The notes under the pieces are model-generated. The model did no database searches. It saw only the letters and a program-made list of their open reading frames with translations, and was not told the DNA's origin. This document shows, one piece after another, positions 541 to 42,265 of a stretch of DNA of 48,410 nt (its first letter is position 1; every line of letters starts with the position of its first letter). Location: positions 1 to 48,410 of the IMG/VR virus record IMGVR_UViG_2531839667_000010; one strand, written 5' to 3'. The stretch is from a virus. Its lineage: Duplodnaviria > Heunggongvirae > Uroviricota > Caudoviricetes. The position numbers and the translations under genes were made by a program.

Positions 541-1578
541 TTAACGCTTATCCGCCACCAGTTTGAGCGCGTGTTCCAGCACATTAATGTCTGCACCCGC
601 TTTATGGGCATTTTCACTTAAATAACGCCGCCACTGCCGCGCGCCAGGAATACCCTGGAACAAGCCCAGCATATGCCGGGTAATATGGCCGAGATACGTA
701 CCCTGGCTGAGTTCACGCTCAATGTACGGATACATGGCGCGCACTACCGCCACCGGATCAGCATCAGTATCCGAGGAACCAAAAATCTCTCGGTCTACCG
801 CCGCCAGAATCCCCGGATTCTGATACGCTTCGCGCCCGACCATCACGCCATCCATATGTTGCAAATGCGCTTTAGCCTCTTCCAGCGACTTGATGCCACC
901 GTTAATCGACATCGTCAGATGCGGAAAGTCACGCTTCAGTTGATACACACGCGGATAATCGAGAGGCGGGATCTCACGGTTTTCTTTCGGACTTAACCCA
1001 GAAAGCCAGGCTTTACGTGCGTGGATGATGAACATCTCACACTCACCTTTGCCGGAAACGGTGTTGATGAAATCGCAGAGAAATTCATAGCTGTCCTGAT
1101 CATCGATGCCAATACGCGTCTTCACCGTCACCGGAATCGACACCACATCGCGCATCGCTTTCACGCAGTCGGCAACCAGCTGCGCATTACCCATCAGACA
1201 CGCACCAAACATGCCGTTCTGCACCCGGTCAGACGGGCAGCCGACATTCAGGTTGATCTCATCGTATCCACGCGCTTCTGCCAGCTTCGCACACTGTGCC
1301 AGCGCCGCCGGATCACTACCCCCGAGTTGCAACGCTACCGGATGTTCTTCTTCACTGTACGCCAGGTAATCACCTTTACCGTGAATAATCGCCCCTGTGG
1401 TCACCATTTCGGTATACAGCAACGTATTGCGGGAAAGCAGACGCAAGAAATAGCGGCAATGTCTGTCCGTCCAGTCGAGCATAGGAGCAATGCTAAACCG
1501 AGAATTCCAGTAAACACCAGTTTTTTCAGGCATCACGCTGGTTTGATTAATTTTTTGTGTTTCATGATTATCGTGCAT
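541..1578 (-). CDS. dusA: tRNA-dihydrouridine synthase A
   Basis: 345-aa ORF with the Dus/TIM-barrel flavoenzyme pattern ([19 protein letters not shown]); near-identical to my recollection of E. coli DusA except the first ~30 residues. Confidence 0.95.
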
Positions 1579-1666: not shown

Positions 1667-2764
1667 ATGGCGTACTATAACATAGAGAAACGACTAAAAT
1701 CCGATGGCACACCACGCTATCGCTGTAATGTGATTATCAAAGAAAAAGGTGTTATCACTTACAGGGAAAGCAAAACATTCCCTAAACATGCTCATGCCAA
1801 AACATGGGGCACACAGAAAGTGATGGAATTAGATCTATATGGCATTCCATCATCAAATGCAGTTGACGGACTTACAGTCCGTGACTTACTACACAAATAT
1901 TTAAATGACCCAAATGCCGGAGGTAAAGCAGGCCGTACTAAAAGATATGTGCTGGAACTGCTTATGGATAGTGACATCTCCGCGATCAAACTATCTGAAC
2001 TGACAGAAAATGACGTAATTGAACATTGCAGGCTAAGAAACAACGCTGGTGCAGGTCCAGCTACAGTTAGCCACGATGTTAGTTATCTTGGCAGTGTTCT
2101 GGATGCTGCCAAACCTGTATATGGAATTAATTACACATCAAACCCAGCAAAAGCCGCTCGTCCATATCTACTTAAACTTGGTTTAATTGGTAAATCAAAC
2201 CGTCGTAATCGTAGACCAGCATCTGATGAACTGGACATGCTCATTGAAGGCCTTCAACAACGATCTACTCATAAATGCTCAAAAATTCCGTTCGTTGATA
2301 TCCTCAAATTTTCTGTGTGGTCCTGTATGCGAATCGGAGAAGTATGCCGGTTACGATGGGAAGATCTCGACCAGGAACAAAAATCTATACTCGTAAGAGA
2401 CAGGAAAGATCCACGCAAAAAGGAAGGCAACCACATGAAAGTAGCCTTGCTTGGGGAAGCCTGGGATATCGTCCAACGACAGCCCCAAAAATCGGAATTC
2501 ATTTTTCCATATAACAGCACTTCTGTTACTGCGGGATTTCAGAGGGTAAGAAGCAAATTAGGTATTAAGGATCTGCGATACCATGATTTGCGTAGAGAAG
2601 GGGCAAGTCGCTTATTTGAGGCTGGTTTTAGTATTGAGGAAGTAGCCCAGGTTACAGGGCATCGTTCATTAAACGTGCTATGGCAGGTATATACCGAACT
2701 GTATCCAAAATCTTTACATAATCGTTTTGAAGAGCTCCAAAGGAGCAGAAATAAGATCTCTTGA
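1667..2764 (+). CDS. int: Tyrosine-type phage integrase (dusA-associated arrangement)
   Basis: 365 aa; C-terminal catalytic region with LRYHDLRREGASRL (H-x-x-R) and GHRSLNVLWQVYTEL (Tyr nucleophile); divergent from and immediately beside the dusA 5' end. Confidence 0.9.
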   Translation: MAYYNIEKRLKSDGTPRYRCNVIIKEKGVITYRESKTFPKHAHAKTWGTQKVMELDLYGIPSSNAVDGLTVRDLLHKYLNDPNAGGKAGRTKRYVLELLMDSDISAIKLSELTENDVIEHCRLRNNAGAGPATVSHDVSYLGSVLDAAKPVYGINYTSNPAKAARPYLLKLGLIGKSNRRNRRPASDELDMLIEGLQQRSTHKCSKIPFVDILKFSVWSCMRIGEVCRLRWEDLDQEQKSILVRDRKDPRKKEGNHMKVALLGEAWDIVQRQPQKSEFIFPYNSTSVTAGFQRVRSKLGIKDLRYHDLRREGASRLFEAGFSIEEVAQVTGHRSLNVLWQVYTELYPKSLHNRFEELQRSRNKIS

Positions 2765-3369: not shown

Positions 3370-4262
3370 ATGACTAACCATTCTCCAGTAGAAAGCCTGC
3401 CAGTTGTTACCTATAACAGCCTCCCGGTGATCACCACCGAACTGCTGGCAAAACTCTACAATACCGAACCCAAATACATTCAAACCAACACGGCGCGTAA
3501 TGAATCACGTTTCGTTGCTGGAAAGCACTTCTTTAAACTGGAAGGCACTGAATAAAAGACTTTAAGAACAGACCATCTTCAAGAGGGTTAGTTGGTTCTC
3601 GCGCTCGTAGCCTTGTTCTCTGGACGGAGCGCGGTGCCGCTCGCCACGCCAAAATGCTCGAAACCGATCAGGCGTGGGAAGTGTTCGAAAAGCTGGAAGA
3701 CTTCTATTTTAGCCAGAAGGAAAAGGCCGAGCAGATTCGTAAGAATCGCCAGTGTACAGCTACCCAGCTTATCCCGCTGCGCCAAACGGCAGAACGGTTA
3801 ATCACGACAGGCCTCGGCAAAATCTATCCCGACATATGGAAGCTGGTTCATCAGCGCTTCGATGTTGAGCATATCCACCAGTTGCAGCCTGAGCAGGTCG
3901 GTGAAGCCATCGAGTATCTGAACGTGCTGGAAGGTGAGTACCTGGGGCGCGAGACGCTTCCGGCAACCCCATCAGTGCATTTCACCAACGAGGAGCTTTG
4001 CGCTCTCTGCTGGGTATGGAATGCCGCCGAATACATGCGGGAGAAGATAGAGCTGGCCTATCCCGCAATGAAAACTCTCAAGTCTGAATACGCACCGAGC
4101 TTCTACTCAATGGCATTTGAGTATCAGCGAACACTGGAAGCCGGTAGAAAGGTTCTCGAACGGGAAACAAAACACATCGTTCCGCATCCTCACAGCGTGT
4201 CAGATGAAAACTGGCGGCGAGTCCTGCCTCGTCTGCGCCAAAATAGCTTACCTCGCGGATAA
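3370..4262 (+). pseudogene. ORF6N-domain (antirepressor-type) protein gene with a frameshift near 3550
   Basis: N-terminal frame (ATG 3370, GAGG Shine-Dalgarno) ends FFKLEGTE at TAA 3553-3555; a second frame continues ...SLVLWTERGAARHAKMLETDQAWEVFEKLEDFYF to 4262, matching my recollection of the ORF6N family; consistent with loss of one T at ctgaa-t-aaaag. Confidence 0.55.
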
Positions 4263-4276
4263 TAAGGGACAAAACG

Positions 4277-5599
4277 ATGAGCGAGATTGCACCAACGAGC
4301 CTGTTACACCCTCTGAAAGCTACCGTTCTGGATTTTCAGGAGGATGAGCACGACTATCAGTTCAAGGTTGAATACCCGGAGCCGACCTGCTGCCATGCCT
4401 GCGGTGCAGTGTCTGACATCATCCGCTTTAACAAAAAGCTGGTGAAGTACCGGGATGTTCCCATGCACGGGAAGCGCGTCACGCTCTGGGTCGTAACACG
4501 CCGTTATCAGTGCAAATCATGCAAAGGCACATTCACCCCGGCCATCCCCGAGATGGCCGAAGCCCACCGCATGACAAAGCGCTGCTATCAGTACATCATT
4601 AAACGTGCGCTGACCGGCACTAACGCCAGCGTCGCGCAAGATGTTGGCTTTGATGAGTCCGTCACCCGTGGGGTCATCAAGTCCTACTGCGAGCAAAAGG
4701 CGAAGACCTATAAGCCTGTGCTGCCGCGAGTGCTGGGCATTGATGAGCTGTACCTGAACAAAACCTTCCGCTGTGTCCTGACCAACATCGAGCAGGGAAC
4801 CATTATTGACATACTGGAATCCCGGCAAAGTAACGTCATCTACAACCGTCTGGCGCATATGGAAGGCCGTGAGAACGTGCAGATCGTCTGTCAGGATATG
4901 TGGAAGCCATACCGTGACGTTGCCAGCCAGCTATTCCCTAAAGCCAGCATCGTCGTTGACCGCTTCCATATCCAGCGCATGGCTAACGAGGCGATGGAAA
5001 TGCTGCGTAAGTCGCTCAAAAAGGATCTGACAGTACACCACCGACGGCAGCTTAAAGGCGACCGTAAGATGATGTTGATGCGTAAGCGTGACCTTAACCC
5101 TATGCAGCAGATGATTATCGAAACGTGGCTGGATCACTATCCTGAGTTGGGTCTGGCCTATCAGCTCAAGGAAGAGTTCTTTGATATCTGGCTGGCACAG
5201 ACTGAACCTGAGGCCAGAATGCGCTATCAGAACTGGCTGGCAAAGATACCCGAGCATCATAAAAAGCACTGGAAGCCGCTGATAACATCCATGACGAACT
5301 GGGAGAAAGAGATATTCGCCTACTTCGGCCCGGCCCAGCGGAAGACCAACGCCTTTACGGAATCCATCAACCGCAAGATGCGCGATCTGAACCGTGATTC
5401 GCGCGGAATGTCCTTTGAGATGTTCAGGGCTAAAACACTGTTCACTCTCAAGCATAAGTTCAGCAAGCCTAAACCAGTGAAAGAATCACCGTTCACGGTT
5501 GGCTATGTCACCGCTGGTTCGTGGGATCTGGATGATGAAATCCGGGACGATTACGGCGTATCTATCGACGCTATTCTGGAATCCAAAATCGGCGAATAA
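4277..5599 (+). CDS. ISL3-family transposase
   Basis: 440 aa; N-terminal zinc-finger/HTH pattern (CCHACG ... [10 protein letters not shown]) typical of ISL3 transposases; sits between ISL3-like terminal repeats with an 8-bp duplication. Confidence 0.75.
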
Positions 5600-5885: not shown

Positions 5886-6449
5886 TTATTTCGTTTGAAT
5901 GCCAGTAACAGGAAATCGTTTATATAGGGTTGATAGCCCAACGTTATAGATACGTGCAACATAACGCCGTGATTTCCCTGCCGCTATGAGCGCTCCCATC
6001 TGTTGCCACTGCTCGTCGCTAAACTTCGGTCTACGCCCACCAATCCGGCCTTTGGATCTGGCAATAGCCAAACCAGCTAAAGTTCGCTCGCTATTCAAAT
6101 CAGATTCATACTGCGCAGCAGAAAGAATATTACGGAAATTATAGCGACCACTTGCTGTTTTCAGGTCTACGCCATCTGTAATACTGCGGAAGTTGATACC
6201 CTTTTCCTGTAACTGCTGGAACATCAACAGCGCATGCAGAACGTTGCGGCCTATCCTGTCCAGCTTCCAGACCACCAGTTCATCCCCCGGCTGCATAGTG
6301 GCGATCAGCCGTTTTAGAACCGGCCGATTCGATTTCCTCCCGCTGGCATGCTCTTCAAAAATTTTCTCACAACCCGCTGACTTGAGCGCCGTTAGTTGCA
6401 ATTCAGTGTCCTGGTGGTTTGTTGATACTCGGGCATAACCGTAAATCAT
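5886..6449 (-). CDS. Serine recombinase / DNA invertase (Pin/Gin/Hin family)
   Basis: 187 aa from MIYGYARVSTNHQDTELQ (catalytic Ser region) with a C-terminal HTH; AGGAG Shine-Dalgarno. The listed 278-aa ORF is an upstream over-extension. Confidence 0.85.
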   Translation of the reverse strand: MIYGYARVSTNHQDTELQLTALKSAGCEKIFEEHASGRKSNRPVLKRLIATMQPGDELVVWKLDRIGRNVLHALLMFQQLQEKGINFRSITDGVDLKTASGRYNFRNILSAAQYESDLNSERTLAGLAIARSKGRIGGRRPKFSDEQWQQMGALIAAGKSRRYVARIYNVGLSTLYKRFPVTGIQTK

Positions 6450-6501
6450 GGGATTTCTCCTGTTATGAAAACAGGAGAAACGGCGAAGCATCACCAGATT
6501 T

Positions 6502-6972
6502 TTGATGGTTATAAAAAAGGTTGGTTTGGGAGAAGGCTCTGCATTACCTGTTGGTGTCCCTGTTCCGTGGCCTTCAGCTACGCCGCCAACAGGCTGGCTG
6601 AAATGCAATGGCGCTGCCTTTGATAAGGTTAAATATCCCCGTCTTGCTACAGCATATCCATCAGGGAAACTACCTGATCTCCGCGGTGAGTTTATTCGTG
6701 GCTGGGATGATGGGCGCAGCATTGATACAGGGCGTGCTTTATTGAGTATTCAGAGTGATGAAGTCAGAAAGCTCGCATTAAAATACTGGGGACCAGCTTC
6801 AAACAGTTCACCATCAAAAACATTTGCACTCAGCGACAGTGCCGGTGGCGGGTTGTACACGGATGGAATAAGTCAGGCAAGCGGTGGGATTATCAACGCT
6901 TTTCAGCTCCCTGGCGGTAACGAAACCCGCCCACGAAATGTTGCATTTAACTATATCGTGAGGGCTGCATAA
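6502..6972 (+). CDS. Alternative tail-fibre C-terminal cassette, currently in the silent orientation
   Basis: No ATG (the frame opens after TGA 6466-6468); carries the conserved tail-fibre C-terminal motif PWPSATPPTGWLKCNGAAF...DLRGEFIRGWDDGR; preceded by a crossover site that shares reading phase with the expressed fibre. Confidence 0.6.
   Translation: MMVIKKVGLGEGSALPVGVPVPWPSATPPTGWLKCNGAAFDKVKYPRLATAYPSGKLPDLRGEFIRGWDDGRSIDTGRALLSIQSDEVRKLALKYWGPASNSSPSKTFALSDSAGGGLYTDGISQASGGIINAFQLPGGNETRPRNVAFNYIVRAA
6509..6534. other. Invertase crossover site (hix/gix-like), left
   Basis: TTATAAAAAAGGTTGGTTTGGGAGAA; its reverse complement TTCTCCCAAACCAACCTTTTTTATAA resembles hix and shares 14 bp with the right site. 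Confidence 0.6.
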
Positions 6973-8009: not shown

Positions 8010-8858
8010 TTATTCACCAACAGCCCACCAACTGTAAATCATTGACACCTTGTCGCTGGTTGATGCAGTTCTGTAAGCAGAATTAAAGCCGGTTAATGTT
8101 GGGCCTTCTACGGACATAACGAATCCACGCCCTGCACCAAAAGGCGCACCGCCATCGCCAGAATGGGTAAGAATGGCGATATCCGCTTTTTTAGGGAAAG
8201 GGATAGGAAATGTAATCCTCATTGTTTGCGTCGATAATTTCGGCATAGCCTCACCTCGACCATATTGCAGGATTTTCCCGTTGGGTAATTTCATCCATCC
8301 ATCACCACTGGCAAACGAGGCCATGTCCGGTATCTGATTTTCCCCTGTCCCCACATTCCGTTTTGCCGCTTCTCCCAAACCAAGGTTTGTGCGAGCGTCT
8401 GCGGCATTCGTTGCGCCGGTTCCGCCGTCTGCGACAGTAACCGCACCGTTGCTCCCTTTCTGCGCAAGTTTACCGATGCCAGGGATGGTTACGGTGGTCC
8501 CGTTGATGGTAACTGTGATGCTTTGGTTTGCTGAGGTAGTGGCGAACGTCTCCCACGCGCCAATGTTCTCGTCATACTCTTTGATGAGCTGCGACATTGC
8601 CTGGGCCAGTCCGTCCACGGAGATAATGTCTGACACCAGAATGGCGTATTTCTGGCCGCTCAGCGCCGGGGAAGCGGCAGGCGTAACCGTCATTGACGTG
8701 GCGCTGTTCACGGATGAAATCTGGAACAGTTGCACCGGGTTAGACATCACGATAATTGTCTGCCCAGCGCGAACCTGGCTGGCGGGAGCTGTCCAGTTTG
8801 TGCCGGAGCCGGTTGCGGTATTTCCTTTAATAGAGATAGTTCCGGTGCTATAAATCAT
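8010..8858 (-). CDS. Side tail fibre protein (constant N-terminal part fused to the currently selected variable C-terminus)
   Basis: 282 aa; a crossover site lies in-frame at 8370-8395 (encoding ...TNLGLGE...). Confidence 0.8.
8370..8395. other. Invertase crossover site (hix/gix-like), right, inside the tail fibre gene
   Basis: TTCTCCCAAACCAAGGTTTGTGCGAG; inverted relative to the left site; same codon phase (GLGE) in both contexts. Confidence 0.6.
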
Positions 8859-8935
8859 AACAACTCCTAAATTTAGACAACATGAAGCCCGGAGAGGTAT
8901 ATAACCATCACCAGAAATAATTTCTGAATTGGTTT

Positions 8936-9238
8936 TTAATACATGTTGGGCAACGCCAGTGTTGGCATAGCTATAGTTGTATCAAATGCCATTGACCACC
9001 CACCCCAATAATAATTGCCGACTACTTTATTCCTTTCCGCTATGACATTCCCACCTGTCATTACAATTCCTTTATACCTAATATTTCCGTAACCACCAAC
9101 GTGTCGACAGTTAGCCCCGGTATAAACAATCTGGCAAAATTCATCACCAATATTCAGGTTCGCATTGTCGATATTTATTGTCCCATCAAAAATGAATGGC
9201 TTCGTGCAAGTAAGAAGACGTTTGCGTTGACGATTGGT
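8936..9238 (-). pseudogene. Start-less remnant of a tail-fibre/tailspike-like gene
   Basis: About 100 open codons with no start codon between stops, encoding ...GTINIDNANLNIGDEF...GGNVIAERNKVVGNYYWGGW..., a repetitive beta-rich pattern. Confidence 0.3.
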
Positions 9239-9363
9239 TTATTCAATCCATCAACTAAAATACCATGTAAACGAATTGCCATAACATTTCCCACTTTATT
9301 TTACTTACTCAACACAACAAGTATATTAAAATTGAACCTTGTCAACAACACAAAGGAGTCCCA

Positions 9364-9597
9364 ATGAAACTCGCTCTAATTATGCTGCCATTATGTCTGT
9401 CCCTCACTGCATGTGGTAATGGTTTAAATACCGGTAAACCAAATTCCGGTGTCATTCCAAAACCTTTGGATCGAGATGGTAACGGTTCTTTAATTTATGA
9501 TACCGAAAACCTTCCAATGACGGGGCAGTGGTGTCACGAGATTGATCACGAATACCGACGAATCGGTAGCCCTTCTAACTGTGTTATAGACTACTAA
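9364..9597 (+). CDS. Small lipoprotein, Cor-like superinfection-exclusion candidate
   Basis: 77 aa with signal peptide and lipobox LTAC; strong AAGGAG Shine-Dalgarno; antisense to the tail operon just downstream of J, where cor sits in phi80/N15/HK022-type phages as I recall. Confidence 0.5.
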   Translation: MKLALIMLPLCLSLTACGNGLNTGKPNSGVIPKPLDRDGNGSLIYDTENLPMTGQWCHEIDHEYRRIGSPSNCVIDY

Positions 9598-9600
9598 ATA

Positions 9601-9630
9601 TTAACCCCTCAAAAGAGGGGTTAATATTTT
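9601..9630. terminator. Bidirectional rho-independent terminator between cor and J
   Basis: Perfect 10-bp stem ttaacccctc/gaggggttaa, loop aaaa, T/A runs on both sides. Confidence 0.55.
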
Positions 9631-12600
9631 AACCTGTGAATGAACCAGATCCGTGTGATACTATGACAGTAGGCGAATAAATGGACGCGCCCCTGTTATT
9701 TTGAGCGGACACTTTAATACGTACTGTTACGTTTGGACCTGTTACAACAGCAGAATGCATAATAAGTCTCTCCACGTCTTGCACAGATGAACCACTCTCA
9801 TTGCCGTTAATATTGATTAGTCCTGCACCATTACCTTTAACGTTTGCTATAACACAGACGTGTCTTGCGTGCCCAGAACTGGATGAATCCTTATAAGTTA
9901 TTACCTTTTCTAAAAGGCCGTCACTAGACCGACTAACGTCAGTTCCGGTGTGCATATTTGCAATGTCCCCGATAAAACTTTGGGCTTCCACAGTCCCTTT
10001 GAATTTACCGCTTGTTGCTTGTATCTCACCAGTAAATCTACCGCCACTAGCATATACTACACCTCTGACGGTCACATTGTTGAATTCAGCATCTCCAGCT
10101 TTATTCAACTTCCAACCAGCAGAACCAGCTGCATAGTTGTTGGACTGGATATAGTTGCCGATTTTTGCGTTCTCAATGGTGCCGTCCTGGATGAAGCTGG
10201 CCCGGATGAATGTCTGTCCATTCTGGATCACAAACGGCAAAGCCACGCTATTTCCGGCTGCCGTGGTGACGGCGAAGCGATCAGCCAGGAAGATAACCTG
10301 CGACTGCATGCCGGATGGCGTATTCTCCACGCCGATACCCATCCCCGCGGCGTAATACTGACCGTTGCTGGAAACGCCAACCTTGATGTTGTACATCGCG
10401 CTGAGGTCGCCATTAACGTTTGCTATCGCCTGAGCGTTAGTGGTGATGGCGGAGGTATGCCCGTTCACGGTCGCCGTAATGCCGTTTATCTGCGTGGCCG
10501 TAGCCTGCTGATAGTCGGAGAACGTCTGATTCAGGCTGTTTATGGATGCCTTGTTGCCGTTGACATCCGTCTGCAGGCTCAGCAGAGAACGCGCCGTTGC
10601 CTCCTTCTCGTTAACGATTACCTCATCAATACGATCCAGCTGCGCACTGTTCCCTGCGACCGAAGCTGACAACGATTTACGCGTAGCCACTTGTGCCAGC
10701 CCGTTCTGGATAATTGCGATAGCAGAGTTCTTCACCCCGCCCGTCATGCCGTCCATAGACACGCTGATGCTGTCGATTCGCTGGCCCAGTGCGGTATCAG
10801 CAGTCGCAACAGTCTGCTCAAGATCTGAGAGAGAAGACGACACATCACCGACCGTGCTAGAAAGCTCATTAACGCTGGTCTGAACCTGCCCGATGTCCTG
10901 CGCGTTTTTTGCGATTTCCTGCGCCTGGAGTTCAAGTTCATCGTTGGCCTGTTTGATGTCGTCAGCCATGCCAGCAATTTTTTCATTGCTGTCCACAGCG
11001 TTCTCGATCAGGTCTTTGAACGTCTCAGACCCTTTGATGTCTTCAAGGATCACATCTGTGATGTCAGAAACATCGATACTGGCCTGCCCACGAACCCAGC
11101 TGGTATAACCTGACTCGTTACCGCTGCGGTCAACCAGCTGCGCGCGGTACCAGAAAATCTGCCCCGCTTTAAGGCCCATCTGCTGATATTTGCGCTGCGG
11201 GTAAGGCACATCGGCCAGCAGCATGGCATCGTCTTCAGTACCGGTCAGGCTGTACTGAATTTCCGTCTTCAGCGTGTCGTCGGTATTCGCCTGGAATCCC
11301 CAGTTCAGCTCGATACCGAACACCACGTTTTCAGAGGCGATAAAGCCAACCGGCTTCGGTGGATTGCCCACTTTACCCGTCAGCGTTTTCTCTTCTGAAT
11401 AGCCCCATCCGGATGAAATTTCTGCGGCATTGATTGCGCGCACCCGCACCAGGTAGCGCCCGGCATAAATCCCCGGGACGTCGAATGACGTGGTGGAGGT
11501 GCGCGGCACGTTAACCCAGTTCCCGTCGTTGCGGCGCCATTGCGCTTCATAGGCGATAGCGTTCTGCGCCTGGTCCCAGCTCACGCGCATTGTTTCGACG
11601 CTGATATTTTGCTGAACCACGGAAAACGAGCTGATCACGATATTCGCAGGCGGCGACTGGTTGCCCGGCGGGATCACGCTCACCGGCCGTTGGTCAATGA
11701 TGGCACCGGTATCGATACGCGCATATTTATCCGGATCGTGCAAAGCGCCAGCAATCGAATACGTTCCGTCATTATTATCCGTAACGCTGATAACGCGATA
11801 TTGCTGCGCGTAAAGCTCTTCAGACTCGACAATCCACACCGATTCCACTGCAGGTGTTTCGCTGTATGCCGTTGTCACAGTGACGGCCCGCCCGTTTACG
11901 CTCTGTATCGTCCTGCTCTGCGATGCGCCGGACGGAAGGTTAACCATCAGACGGCTTCCGGGAGCGGCTGCCGAATCACGATCAAGCGTGATAACGCGAC
12001 CGTTAACCGCGCTGATGCGCCCTCCCATCACTTTTCCGGAAAGCAGCTCATCGGCAACCGCGATGATATAACCAGGCTGTGGGATCTTACCGTCAAGACC
12101 AACATCGAACGACACGATGCGATCCTTGTTATTGGTCAGGATACCCCAACGTCCTTTGCGGTTTGCCTCTGACTGCCGGGTACAACCAATGGCTGTCATT
12201 TCGAGCTGATTTGTGCCAAAGCGAGCAACGAGATCCTGCTCAAATACAGGCTCCATCGCATCCGCGTAGGCATTACCCGGATCGGACCAGGAAACCAGTG
12301 CCGTGGTATAGCGGGTTTTGGTGGTGCTGCCCGAATAGGTAAAGCGCCCATTAACCACGTTTGCACGCGTGTAGCTGTAATCCACATCGCGGGGCATATC
12401 CGCCAGCGCAACGATTTGATCGCCACCCCAGTACGTCATGCCCCGGAATATCGCCGCAAAATCACGTAACACGGTATAGGCGTCATTCCTCTCCTGCACG
12501 TACACGTTACAGGTATAGCGAGGCTCAGTGCCGCTACCGCCTTTACCATCAGGAACCGGCTGATCGCAATATTGCGCGACCTGATAAAGCGTCCATTTAT

Positions 12601-13519
12601 CAATATTGGCCGCCGTCAGGCGATTGCCCAGCCCAAAGCGGTCGCTCACCACCAGATCGTAAAAAATCCAGGCTGGATTATCCGTCCACGCCCACTTAAA
12701 CGCCCCTGTCCATGTGCCGCTGTAGGTGCGGGTCTCCGGGTCATACGTATCCGGAACGCGGATTACACGCCCTCGCGGTTCGCAGGATATTTGCGGGATA
12801 GAGCCGTTAAACTGGCTTGAGTCGAATTCGATGTACAGCAGCGCGGTATTTGGATAACGCAGTTTGGCGTCAATAACCTCTGTGTAGCTCTGCAGCGTCA
12901 TCGTGTCGCCAATTTTCGCGCTGTTGGCATCCGCCGTAAGCTTACGCAGGCGCACCGTCCATGTACTGCCTGCCTGTGGTAAATCGATACGATGGCTGCG
13001 TTCGTAGCCGGAAGTTGTCTTGCCGGTTACGCTGGTATTAAGTACCGTCTGCCAGGTGCCGCCATCGGTCTGCAGATCAATAGCGTAGTTAATTGAATAG
13101 CCAACCAGATCGCCATCATCCTCCTGTTTAAAAAGCGATGGCCACTTGAGGCGCAGGCGAACGGCTGACAGTTGCGTGTTGGTAAAGGTATGTGTCCAGC
13201 CGGTGGTGCTTGACACTTCGGTGCCCACGCTGATTTCATTTTCTGTGCCGGGGATACCCTGAATATATTTTTGTGCCTGAGTCCCCGGACGAAATTCCCA
13301 CGCCACGCCACTGAAGTTTTGCGATCCGTCTGCATTCTCCAGTGGCGTGCCATCGAGATAGATATCCTTCGCCGTCAACTGCCCTGCAAATTCGCCCTCT
13401 CCCAGTGCAACAAGAATTTTGGCTTTCGCTACGGACTGGAGATCGTCTGGTTGTTCAGTCGGGGTGCGTGAACTGGAGCTGCCGCCCTTGCGGCCTCTAA
13501 TCGGAGTAGATGTAGCCAT
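9629..13519 (-). CDS. J: Tail tip / host-specificity protein J
   Basis: 1296 aa; recalled lambda J motifs (YCDQPVPDG...TEPRYTCNVY); position after tail assembly protein I. Confidence 0.9.
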   Translation of the reverse strand: MATSTPIRGRKGGSSSSRTPTEQPDDLQSVAKAKILVALGEGEFAGQLTAKDIYLDGTPLENADGSQNFSGVAWEFRPGTQAQKYIQGIPGTENEISVGTEVSSTTGWTHTFTNTQLSAVRLRLKWPSLFKQEDDGDLVGYSINYAIDLQTDGGTWQTVLNTSVTGKTTSGYERSHRIDLPQAGSTWTVRLRKLTADANSAKIGDTMTLQSYTEVIDAKLRYPNTALLYIEFDSSQFNGSIPQISCEPRGRVIRVPDTYDPETRTYSGTWTGAFKWAWTDNPAWIFYDLVVSDRFGLGNRLTAANIDKWTLYQVAQYCDQPVPDGKGGSGTEPRYTCNVYVQERNDAYTVLRDFAAIFRGMTYWGGDQIVALADMPRDVDYSYTRANVVNGRFTYSGSTTKTRYTTALVSWSDPGNAYADAMEPVFEQDLVARFGTNQLEMTAIGCTRQSEANRKGRWGILTNNKDRIVSFDVGLDGKIPQPGYIIAVADELLSGKVMGGRISAVNGRVITLDRDSAAAPGSRLMVNLPSGASQSRTIQSVNGRAVTVTTAYSETPAVESVWIVESEELYAQQYRVISVTDNNDGTYSIAGALHDPDKYARIDTGAIIDQRPVSVIPPGNQSPPANIVISSFSVVQQNISVETMRVSWDQAQNAIAYEAQWRRNDGNWVNVPRTSTTSFDVPGIYAGRYLVRVRAINAAEISSGWGYSEEKTLTGKVGNPPKPVGFIASENVVFGIELNWGFQANTDDTLKTEIQYSLTGTEDDAMLLADVPYPQRKYQQMGLKAGQIFWYRAQLVDRSGNESGYTSWVRGQASIDVSDITDVILEDIKGSETFKDLIENAVDSNEKIAGMADDIKQANDELELQAQEIAKNAQDIGQVQTSVNELSSTVGDVSSSLSDLEQTVATADTALGQRIDSISVSMDGMTGGVKNSAIAIIQNGLAQVATRKSLSASVAGNSAQLDRIDEVIVNEKEATARSLLSLQTDVNGNKASINSLNQTFSDYQQATATQINGITATVNGHTSAITTNAQAIANVNGDLSAMYNIKVGVSSNGQYYAAGMGIGVENTPSGMQSQVIFLADRFAVTTAAGNSVALPFVIQNGQTFIRASFIQDGTIENAKIGNYIQSNNYAAGSAGWKLNKAGDAEFNNVTVRGVVYASGGRFTGEIQATSGKFKGTVEAQSFIGDIANMHTGTDVSRSSDGLLEKVITYKDSSSSGHARHVCVIANVKGNGAGLININGNESGSSVQDVERLIMHSAVVTGPNVTVRIKVSAQNNRGASIYSPTVIVSHGSGSFTG

Positions 13520-30698: not shown

Positions 30699-30929
30699 TT
30701 AAGAGAAGGAGACGCCTAAATTAACCAGTACGGCTCTTTTTTCCTCAATACGACGGTCAAGCTCAGCCACAGCATGTGGGCGTATAGCATCCAAAAAGGC
30801 ATTATCCTGATAGGTAGATTGGATTGTTACCCCAAGCCCTGCACCACTCTCCAGAATGTTTTTCTGTCGCTGTAGTTCTTTTATCTCGTTATTGAGGTAA
30901 TACGCTTCACTTAGGTTTTCTGCGTTCAT
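30699..30929 (-). CDS. Hypothetical protein, translationally coupled to Rz
   Basis: 76 aa; start overlaps the Rz stop. Confidence 0.5.
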
Positions 30930-31450
30930 CGTGTAACCCTGTTGTTATTCGACTGTCTCACCGAGTCGTAAATCCGCTCACACGTCATTCCGGCGCGGTA
31001 GCGTTCGTCAGCGATTCCAGCATAACGTTTAGCTTCTGCTGCAATATCTCCGAGCATGTCGGCGAGCATTCTGGCGTCGGCTCCGGCTGTTTTGCTTCGG
31101 ACGGCAGCGGCAAGATCTGCGGTGTGCTTTGCGGCGTCCAGGCTGGTAGCGAGTTTTTTGGCTTGTTGCTGCAGCTTGCTAACAGTGGCAGACAGGCCAG
31201 CAGCAGTGGCAGCAGATTTAGCGGCTTGTGCTTGTGCATCTTTTACAGCCTCATCACGGGCAATAATTCGCCCTTGTTCAATCATGCGGGCGGCGGTCTG
31301 CGCGTTCGCTGTTTGCGATGATTCCGCGCTGTCACGTTCCGCCCACTTTTTTTCCCAACCTCGGTTACTCCAGACGCTTCCGGCAATAAACGCACAGCCC
31401 ACCAGCAGAAACACAGCAAAGGTTTTACTCACTGGTCTATCCCCCAGCAC
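30926..31450 (-). CDS. Rz: Rz-type i-spanin
   Basis: N-terminal transmembrane segment then Ala/Gln-rich coiled coil; contains the embedded Rz1 ORF. Confidence 0.75.
30985..31239 (-). CDS. Rz1: Rz1-type o-spanin lipoprotein, embedded in Rz in another frame
   Basis: Signal peptide with lipobox LASC followed by a proline-rich sequence; lies wholly inside Rz. Confidence 0.6.
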
Positions 31451-41611: not shown

Positions 41612-42265
41612 ATGATGAACATGAGTGATCGTATTCGCCAAAGGCGAAAAGAACTGAACCTGACACAACAAGCACTGGCTGATTTGACTGGTGTGAACCG
41701 TGTCACGGTTACTGGATGGGAAAAGGACGACTACCAACCAAATGGAGCCAACCTTCAAGCCCTAGCCAACGCACTTAAATGCGATCCTCTGTGGCTTGTT
41801 AGCGGAAAAGGCTCGCCTGAACCAAAGATAAATCTAAAACCTGAAATATTCGCAGTTAAAAAAGTCCCCCTCATCTCGTGGGTTCAGGCGGGTTCATGGA
41901 CAATGACGGAGCCTGGTGTCAGGAAAGAAGATGCTGAAGAGTGGGTTTATACTACCGCCATTGTATCAGAAATGGCATTTGCACTACGGGTCCGTGGTGA
42001 TTCAATGACCAATCCCCTCGGCTCACCATCGATACCAGAAGGTTCTATCGTTATCGTAGAGCCAGATATTATTGATACAGAGTGTATTAACGGAAAAATC
42101 GTTGTTGCCCATATCAATGGTGGGCAAGAAGCGACACTCAAAAAATTTGTTGAGGACTGGCCGAACAGGTATCTCGTCCCACTAAATCCTAACTATAAAA
42201 CTATTGAATGCGGTGAGAACTGCAGAATAGTTGGTCTTGTCAAACAAGTAATAATGGATTTTTGA
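41612..42265 (+). CDS. cI: CI-type prophage repressor (HTH plus S24 LexA-like autopeptidase)
   Basis: 217 aa; N-terminal HTH (LTQQALADLTGV), C-terminal RVRGDSM Ser nucleophile and downstream Lys. Confidence 0.9.
   Translation: MMNMSDRIRQRRKELNLTQQALADLTGVNRVTVTGWEKDDYQPNGANLQALANALKCDPLWLVSGKGSPEPKINLKPEIFAVKKVPLISWVQAGSWTMTEPGVRKEDAEEWVYTTAIVSEMAFALRVRGDSMTNPLGSPSIPEGSIVIVEPDIIDTECINGKIVVAHINGGQEATLKKFVEDWPNRYLVPLNPNYKTIECGENCRIVGLVKQVIMDF

Follow-up and report, generated by a model that had tools for sequence, protein, structure and literature searches.

The 77-aa lipoprotein encoded between the J and side tail fibre genes of the phi80-like prophage sequence analysed here (48,410 nt in full; hereafter, the window) is probably a LamB-directed superinfection-exclusion factor, with respect both to its target and to the phenotype it would confer. 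This reading is based on the protein family, the gene neighbourhood and the receptors used by phages that carry homologues. The gene, designated lpp, had been linked in the first-pass annotation to the Cor proteins of phi80/N15-type phages, which exclude phages that use FhuA; this positional annotation, plausible but wrong, is corrected here to LamB. The coordinates of the relevant features are given in Table 1.

Table 1. Features of the lpp locus and the adjoining tail genes (window coordinates)
Feature	Position (nt)	Strand	Details
Side tail fibre gene, constant N-terminal part, running into an invertible segment	8010-8858	-	Pfam Gp53-like_C; inverted repeat at 8369-8388
Truncated DUF6453 gene	8936-9199	-	Pfam PF20051, E = 8e-19; profile positions 227-289 of 291 (C-terminal ~63)
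Mobile cassette	9224-10084	both	lpp promoter region, lpp, bidirectional terminator and last ~150 codons of J
Sigma-70-type promoter-like site	9300-9327	+	TTTACT (9300), 16-nt spacer, TATATT (9327); predicted start near 9334
lpp Shine-Dalgarno sequence	9353-9358	+	AAGGAG, 5 nt before the ATG; read directly
lpp	9364-9597	+	77-aa prolipoprotein, ATG start; mature form of 61 aa from Cys17; PHROG 12984
lpp lipoprotein signal peptide (residues 1-16) and Cys17 codon (9412-9414)	9364-9414	+	MKLALIMLPLCLSLTA followed by C
Bidirectional intrinsic-terminator hairpin	9596-9629	both	15-bp stem, 4-nt loop; overlaps the lpp and J stop codons
J (tail tip/host specificity, TipJ-type)	9629-13519	-	1296 aa; Pfam FNIII-A_GpJ, Phage-tail_3, Phage_Tail_Tip

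The structural description in the first-pass annotation is borne out: a 77-aa lipoprotein gene with a strong Shine-Dalgarno sequence lies between J and the side tail fibre gene, on the strand opposite to both, and ends at a bidirectional terminator. The Shine-Dalgarno sequence is also kept in the aligned CAjan, KurtStettler and Escherichia coli Nissle 1917 loci. The N-terminus of the product, MKLALIMLPLCLSLTA followed by CGNG, is a textbook lipoprotein signal peptide, with Lys2 in the n-region, the hydrophobic core LALIMLPLCLSL and the lipobox L14-T15-A16-C17 (LTAC). Cys17 is invariant in 21/21 members of the family alignment, but every lipoprotein has a lipobox, and its presence does not single out Cor. 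Residue +2 of the lipoprotein is Gly, and this position is Gly or Ala in all aligned family members. Under the +2 rule, Gly at this position predicts sorting to the outer membrane, and the window lipoprotein is likely to be located there. The mature protein begins with a Gly/Asn-rich tether, which is followed by a core of about 45 aa with two invariant cysteines.

Comparison with the related phages gave dN/dS values for lpp of 0.069 (versus CAjan) and 0.084 (versus KurtStettler), at a dS of 0.5-1.2, meaning that synonymous sites of the compared copies are half to fully saturated. By this measure the gene is under strong purifying selection. The low dN/dS, the 44 phage homologues described below and the 22 residues that are invariant throughout the 21-sequence family alignment together show lpp to be a real gene and not a chance ORF. 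Searches with the protein against Pfam, NCBIfam, PADLOC and PDB sequences returned no match, and the AlphaFold2 model computed from the 21-sequence alignment was unusable (mean pLDDT 57.6, pTM 0.33). The EF-hand-like appearance of the stretch DRDGNGSLIYDTE was dropped from consideration since only its Gly is invariant in the family. An o-spanin (Rz1-like) identity was also rejected: the sole match was to PHROG 11621 (E = 0.25) and fell on the signal peptide, and the window has a separate, Pro-rich lipobox ORF. The latter (84 aa, nt 30985-31239, minus strand) lies within the ORF at nt 30926-31450 (minus strand) and corresponds to the Rz1/o-spanin-like gene that a lysis cassette is expected to contain.

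The lipoprotein matches PHROG 12984 ('lipoprotein') from end to end (77/77 positions, E = 1.3e-56) and carries all of the invariant residues of the family: C17, P26-N-S-G-V30, G54-Q-W-C57, R66, G68, N72-C73 and Y77. A tblastn search of 50,697 phage records gave 44 significant records, 37 of them from obligately lytic phages of the genera Seuratvirus, Nonagvirus or Dhillonvirus. Amino acid identity was 82-96% for the Seuratvirus/Nonagvirus homologues (CAjan, Seurat, 9g, the SLUR phages and BASEL phages Bas21-24, with the Bas23 protein at 94.8%), 77% for Salmonella phage STP-SP5, about 72% for the Dhillonvirus homologues (EP23, PNS1 and others), 69% for MagusPhagus over a partial alignment, and 56% for the Enterobacter phage AS5 (Drexlerviridae). 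The temperate phages mEp010, mEp013, mEp044 and mEp554 also carry homologues, and these show 51% identity over the full length, or 71% where only the mature core aligns. Extending the threshold to E<=10 added only chance-level matches in Bacillus and Burkholderia phages. When mature proteins were compared, identity to the window lipoprotein was 98% for CAjan, 95% for KurtStettler, 75% for EP23, 67% for AS5 and, over 52 aligned residues, 71% for mEp044.

The family is very small. Clustering at 90% identity gives 22 clusters in a set of 5.8 billion proteins, and an exhaustive HMM search of 1.84 billion representatives (50% identity) recovered three true family members and no bridge from the family to Cor or Llp. 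Two giant repetitive proteins found in the same search are compositional artefacts. Of 5426 complete E. coli genomes, 40 carry the gene, roughly half of these being Nissle 1917 and its derivatives, and its RefSeq name is 'hypothetical protein' in 30/30 of the E. coli matches listed, of the 40 found. A frameshifted allele (P0014; 74 aa, diverging after residue 54) was seen outside the window on 29 E. coli contigs, including a 5.1-Mb genome, so that some hosts carry an inactivated copy. The position of the gene is constant. In 12/12 loci, lpp is arranged tail-to-tail with J, at a distance of 29-34 nt. These loci represent five phage groups and comprise the window, Nissle, QL57EC, mEp044, CAjan, Bas21, Bas22, Bas23, EP23, AS5 and two contigs, one from Salmonella arizonae and one from a metagenomic phage.

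The likeness to Cor that had been claimed did not survive alignment. The window lipoprotein gave no blastp match to phi80 Cor at E<=10 and no blastp alignment to T5 Llp at E<=100. Neither did it match, at E<=1, the NCBIfam model NF047972 ('phage exclusion lipoprotein Cor') or PHROG 1119, on which phi80 Cor scores 140.9 bits (cutoff 31) and 126.7 bits, respectively. In profile-profile comparisons (hhalign) of the 21-sequence window family with a Cor alignment built from 29 sequences, only columns 1-29 aligned, corresponding to the signal peptide and lipobox, and with Llp the alignment was restricted to columns 1-22, again the signal peptide and lipobox. The invariant residues of the Cor family and the window family have nothing in common. 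The PDB sequence search returned no match for the window lipoprotein, and no second homologue of Cor, Llp or Lom was found elsewhere in the window. The positional argument holds in part. The gene does occupy the slot between J and side fibre, as cor does in phi80 (JX871397; order J-gp22-gp23-cor-fibre), but in phi80 the two genes share a strand and cor is not antisense to J, and homologues of phi80 gp22 and gp23 were not found in the window (tblastn).

A Cor-like lipoprotein that inactivates FhuA, and so excludes T1, phi80 and T5, would have the same size (77 aa) and class as phi80 Cor and T5 Llp, and would sit in the expected slot of a phage with a phi80-like J body and fibre. Weak similarity alone would not bar the analogy, given that Cor and Llp are themselves only ~20% identical (PMC9586334). 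Against this stand the absence of blastp and profile matches, the limitation of the hhalign alignments to the signal peptide, the completely different invariant residues, the lack of gp22/gp23 homologues, a J tip that matches those of LamB users and the presence of the homologue in no FhuA-dependent phage. The Cor/FhuA reading is not supported by these comparisons; we regard it as largely refuted and highly improbable. FhuA had been named as the receptor concerned, and the functional and co-occurrence evidence all favours LamB in its place. The wider claim of receptor-level superinfection exclusion stands as the best-supported function, exclusion having been seen in the 51%-identical mEp relative.

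Residues 5-1145 of the window J protein share 56% identity with phi80 J, and its last ~150 residues show no similarity to the phi80 tip. The last 130 residues are 84% identical to those of KurtStettler (Bas22), 93% identical to those of the Nissle prophage and 64% identical to those of mEp044. KurtStettler and mEp044 are both LamB-dependent, and the tip is accordingly grouped with those of LamB users. A corresponding boundary is seen in the DNA (blastn). The whole of the cassette in Table 1 is 77% identical to KurtStettler, and its section at nt 9224-9631 is 88% identical to CAjan. Just outside, nt 10099-10438 are 88.8% identical to phi80 J and nt 8443-8859 are 86% identical to the phi80 fibre gene gp25, the first 173 residues of the side tail fibre protein being 79% identical to gp25. 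On this evidence a cassette of ~0.86 kb has been grafted onto tail genes (J and fibre) that are otherwise phi80-like. The counterpart of this site in phi80 carries the J tip, gp22, gp23 and cor.

At least four types of J tip can be distinguished, which are only ~20-30% identical to each other, and types I and II both include phages that are LamB-dependent by experiment. The lipoprotein is 67-98% identical across all four. This conservation, together with the exclusion of lambda (which has an unrelated tip) by a relative of the lipoprotein, favours a target on the host side over one on the phage tip.

The truncated DUF6453 gene beyond the cassette is labelled 'incomplete, missing N-terminus' in RefSeq. 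A full-length version, coding for a 'membrane protein' of ~319 aa, directly follows J in Salmonella phage SPN3UB, and the fragment is apparently a relic of an older post-J gene, the cassette having taken the place of the earlier J tip and of most of this post-J gene. An origin of the remnant from phi80 gp22/gp23 was rejected (no match by tblastn). DUF6453 occurs in 253 phage records, and in the Drexlerviridae phage ESCO41 the gene occupies the lpp slot and converges with J; it may represent another gene of host-range or exclusion loci. Just upstream of it in ESCO41 is an 80-aa hypothetical gene (nt 2066-2308 of locus L016, plus strand), also convergent to J, that could specify another small exclusion protein.

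Several other features lie on the fibre side of the window. The fibre gene runs into an invertible segment bounded by 20-nt inverted repeats (nt 6516-6535 and 8369-8388), which carries alternative fibre tips and two Caudo_TAP chaperone genes in opposite orientations, and is adjoined by a gene for a Pin/Gin-type invertase (Resolvase and HTH_7 domains) within the ORF at nt 5886-6722 (minus strand). An ISL3-family transposase gene (DDE_Tnp_ISL3 and Zn_ribbon_ISL3; nt 4277-5599, plus strand) is inserted between the invertase gene and a fragment of a P22 AR-like antirepressor gene (nt 3654-4262). At the fibre end of the prophage, a dihydrouridine synthase gene (nt 541-1578, minus strand) adjoins a tyrosine integrase gene (nt 1667-2764, plus strand), and the integrase gene points away from the chromosomal gene, which would be unusual if it were part of the same prophage.

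The co-occurrence of the lipoprotein with LamB use is consistent in two sets of phages. In the BASEL supplementary table, LamB is the terminal receptor of Bas21, 22, 23 and 24, and the other 21 small siphoviruses use LptD, FhuA, BtuB, YncD or TolC; the lamB dependence of Bas22 (KurtStettler) has been complemented. Exactly Bas21-24 carry a homologue among these BASEL phages, and none of those using the other five receptors is found among the 44 significant records. Within the mEp phages, mEp010, mEp013, mEp044 and mEp554 need LamB while mEp021 and mEp515 need OmpA (Negrete-Mendez et al. 2025, PMC11893012), and exactly the four LamB users are matches. In total, LamB is used by 8/8 of the phages that carry a homologue and have had their receptor tested (Bas21-24, mEp010, mEp013, mEp044 and mEp554), and the 44 records include no homologue in the OmpA users mEp021 and mEp515, or in phi80 or T5. 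Nothing usable was found in the literature on the receptor of phage 9g.

Functional evidence comes from the mEp010 type-C lipoprotein, Lpp010, which when expressed from a Ptac plasmid excludes mEp010, mEp044, mEp554 and lambda, whereas mEp013, which also needs LamB, remains able to infect (PMC11893012). Because mEp013 escapes, the effect of Lpp010 is not simple receptor loss. The protein mEp044_110 is the same as Lpp010 apart from A11S in the signal peptide (the diagnostic residues K2, S11, Q38 and V40 are present), and it aligns with the window lipoprotein with E = 2.5e-30 and an identity of 51% overall and 71% in the mature core (blastp). LamB would be the direct target of the window copy as well; that the tested relative is only 51% identical overall counts against this. 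For the LamB-targeting phage Bas23, van den Berg et al. (2022, PMC9586334) considered an exclusion lipoprotein downstream of gpJ 'likely', and the Seuratvirus-type lipoprotein has been predicted to be a LamB exclusion factor by both Maffei (2021) and van den Berg (2022, PMC9586334). The role of the family was thus already predicted in 2021-22, and was shown for one relative in 2025.

Some points count against a LamB-directed role. Lambda itself uses LamB without such a gene, mEp013 escapes Lpp010, and lambda still adsorbs via LamB to E. coli Nissle 1917, whose copy of lpp is identical (see below). The -35 hexamer of the prophage copies of lpp, TTTACT, is weaker than the TTGACT of the lytic phages. 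LamB is also a porin without a plug and without known allostery (PMC9586334), so that the mechanism by which Llp acts on FhuA is not simply transferable; how exclusion could work on a receptor without allostery was asked by van den Berg et al. (2022, PMC9586334).

The gap of 31 nt between the convergent stop codons of lpp and J is filled by the terminator hairpin, which has a perfect 15-bp stem, T-rich tails on both strands, and free energies of -20.9 kcal/mol (plus strand) and -22.1 kcal/mol (minus strand). The corresponding z scores are -5.5 and -5.1, and 0/200 shuffled sequences fold as well. An equivalent terminator has been annotated at the same place in mEp044. Upstream of the gene, the promoter-like site matches 9/12 consensus positions. 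Sites of this kind are not enriched over shuffles in the lpp region (5 found versus 3.6 expected in the scan), and the support for the promoter derives from its conservation in relatives and not from the scan statistics: CAjan and KurtStettler have TTGACT-16-TATATT at this position, and the Nissle site matches that of the window exactly. We infer that it serves as the lpp promoter. The window also has a cI-like repressor gene (S24/HTH; nt 41612-42265, plus strand). Antisense orientation combined with an own promoter and an own terminator is a moron layout, which permits expression from a repressed prophage, and lpp may be expressed in the lysogen.

The LamB-directed reading can be set out as follows. 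The lipoprotein would be an outer-membrane-anchored exclusion partner of the LamB-binding J tip, and the C-terminal ~150 codons of J, the terminator, the antisense lpp gene and its own sigma-70 promoter move between phages as one cassette. Being antisense to the late operon and having its own promoter, lpp could be transcribed while the late operon is silent, and the processed 61-aa lipoprotein would then act on LamB. Infection would be prevented for any phage needing this receptor, which includes lambda, the Seuratvirus and mEp-type phages and those related to the prophage itself. In the lytic cycle, the lipoprotein would in addition protect progeny from loss to cell debris. By default, and in analogy to the binding of Llp to FhuA, LamB might be blocked by binding from the periplasmic side.

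E. coli Nissle 1917 is of particular relevance to the mode of action. Its copy of lpp (NZ_CP022686, nt 430269-430502) is identical to that of the window in DNA and protein, adjoins a J gene with a tip 93% identical to the window J tip, and belongs to the PHAST 'prophage 4' (nt 1,995,584-2,054,639 of CP007799), beside yecD/aspS. This is not the 'prophage 3' that was studied by Bury et al. (PMC5987069). Nissle 1917 is fully resistant to lambda, yet lambda adsorbs to it in a LamB-dependent manner (Bury 2018, PMC5987069). As the gene is identical, the lipoprotein either does not block adsorption or is not expressed in this strain. The Nissle copy of lpp is a candidate for the 'other factor' that Bury et al. 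postulated to be behind the resistance. Lambda adsorption to resistant Nissle 1917 and the escape of mEp013 also provide a hint that the block may come after initial binding. A form of the mechanism in which the lipoprotein binds LamB and leaves adsorption intact, blocking only the commitment to DNA ejection, with the prophage 4 copy as the 'unidentified factor', would explain both why lambda binds LamB of Nissle 1917 without infecting and why mEp013 escapes; we consider this specific version rather unlikely.

The same observations would also fit a lipoprotein that excludes LamB-dependent phages without binding LamB, either by acting on another shared envelope component or step, such as the triggering of DNA ejection or periplasmic transit, or by lowering LamB levels indirectly. 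Lambda binds to Nissle via LamB even though the strain carries the identical gene and is fully resistant, the authors of that study inferred a factor that blocks DNA entry (PMC5987069), mEp013 needs LamB and escapes Lpp010 (PMC11893012), and LamB has no plug to jam (PMC9586334). However, further barriers exist in Nissle, among them the capsule and additional prophages, and Gly or Ala at residue +2 in all members of the family predicts localisation in the outer rather than the inner membrane. A direct effect on the receptor is the simplest explanation for the exclusive pairing of the gene with LamB-type J tips and agrees with all characterised cases of this gene arrangement (Llp-FhuA structure, PMC9586334), and an indirect action is judged to be distinctly unlikely. 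A similarly low probability is given to the view that lpp is a passenger of the J-tip cassette of lytic phages, protecting progeny from debris during lytic growth and giving the lysogen no phenotype. This would agree with the predominance of obligately lytic phages among the homologues (37/44 records), the low frequency of the gene in complete E. coli genomes (40/5426, about half being Nissle derivatives), the degraded -35 hexamer of the prophage copies (TTGACT to TTTACT) and the circulation of the frameshifted allele on 29 contigs. It is opposed by the moron layout of antisense orientation, own promoter and own terminator, which is suited to expression in the lysogen, by the 100% identity of the coding sequence in the three prophage copies compared (window, Nissle and QL57EC), and by the retention of the same gene in the temperate mEp phages. 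Exclusion directed at LamB is preferred over both.

What is new in the present results is the occurrence of lpp in a phi80-like prophage, the exchange of its cassette with lytic phages and the link to Nissle 1917. A host-range tip and the matching exclusion gene move as one unit of ~0.86 kb between obligately lytic Seuratvirus phages and temperate phi80-like prophages. The assignment would place a LamB exclusion lipoprotein in a prophage of lambdoid type, and no lambda-excluding lipoprotein has been reported from lambdoid phages according to the authors of the mEp study (PMC11893012). The Nissle copy is a candidate determinant of the lambda resistance of this probiotic strain, and a family that is named 'hypothetical' in RefSeq can now be given a useful name. 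How a plug-less porin is disabled is a question that van den Berg et al. (2022, PMC9586334) put in so many words.

The window lipoprotein can be compared with four known groups of proteins. As with Cor (phi80, N15, T1, HK022), the prolipoprotein has 77 aa and its gene lies between those for J and the side fibre, and it would follow the same logic of a prophage-borne, receptor-level exclusion factor. It differs in having no detectable homology to Cor beyond the signal peptide and in the strand of its gene, which is opposite to J, whereas phi80 cor is on the J strand; Cor is paired with separate gp22/gp23-type genes and FhuA, whereas in the window the tip forms part of J itself, with LamB as the probable receptor. 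T5 Llp has the same precursor length (77 aa) and mature length (61 aa), with one disulphide, and its gene adjoins that of the receptor-binding protein on the opposite strand, with its own promoter, and serves both exclusion and progeny protection. There is no sequence similarity between the two, however, and the T5 genes are divergent while lpp and J are convergent. Acting from the periplasm, Llp jams the plug that closes its target, a TonB-dependent transporter; LamB is without a plug (PMC9586334), so that the two mechanisms must differ in detail.

The lipoproteins of Seuratvirus, Nonagvirus and Dhillonvirus phages (Bas21-24, CAjan gp19, Seurat, 9g and EP23) are 75-98% identical to the window lipoprotein in their mature parts and have an identical gene layout, with promoter and terminator DNA in common (77-88% identity). 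These phages are obligately lytic, most of them have a J tip of type II (Bas22 excepted), and the function of the lipoprotein there is a predicted one. The mEp type-C lipoproteins (Lpp010, which is mEp010 gp116, and mEp044_110) are carried by a non-lambdoid temperate group with a J protein of 1828 aa, unlike the window copy with its phi80-like (lambdoid-type) prophage, and their N-terminal tether is different (CAIDKEAALHNL against CGNGLNTGK). They share with the window lipoprotein PHROG 12984, the invariant motifs PNSGV, GQWC and RIGSPSNC, the same two cysteines, the tail-to-tail arrangement with J at a common terminator, and homologous J tips (64% identity over the last 130 aa), and they include the family member that has been shown to exclude LamB-dependent phages, lambda among them (PMC11893012).
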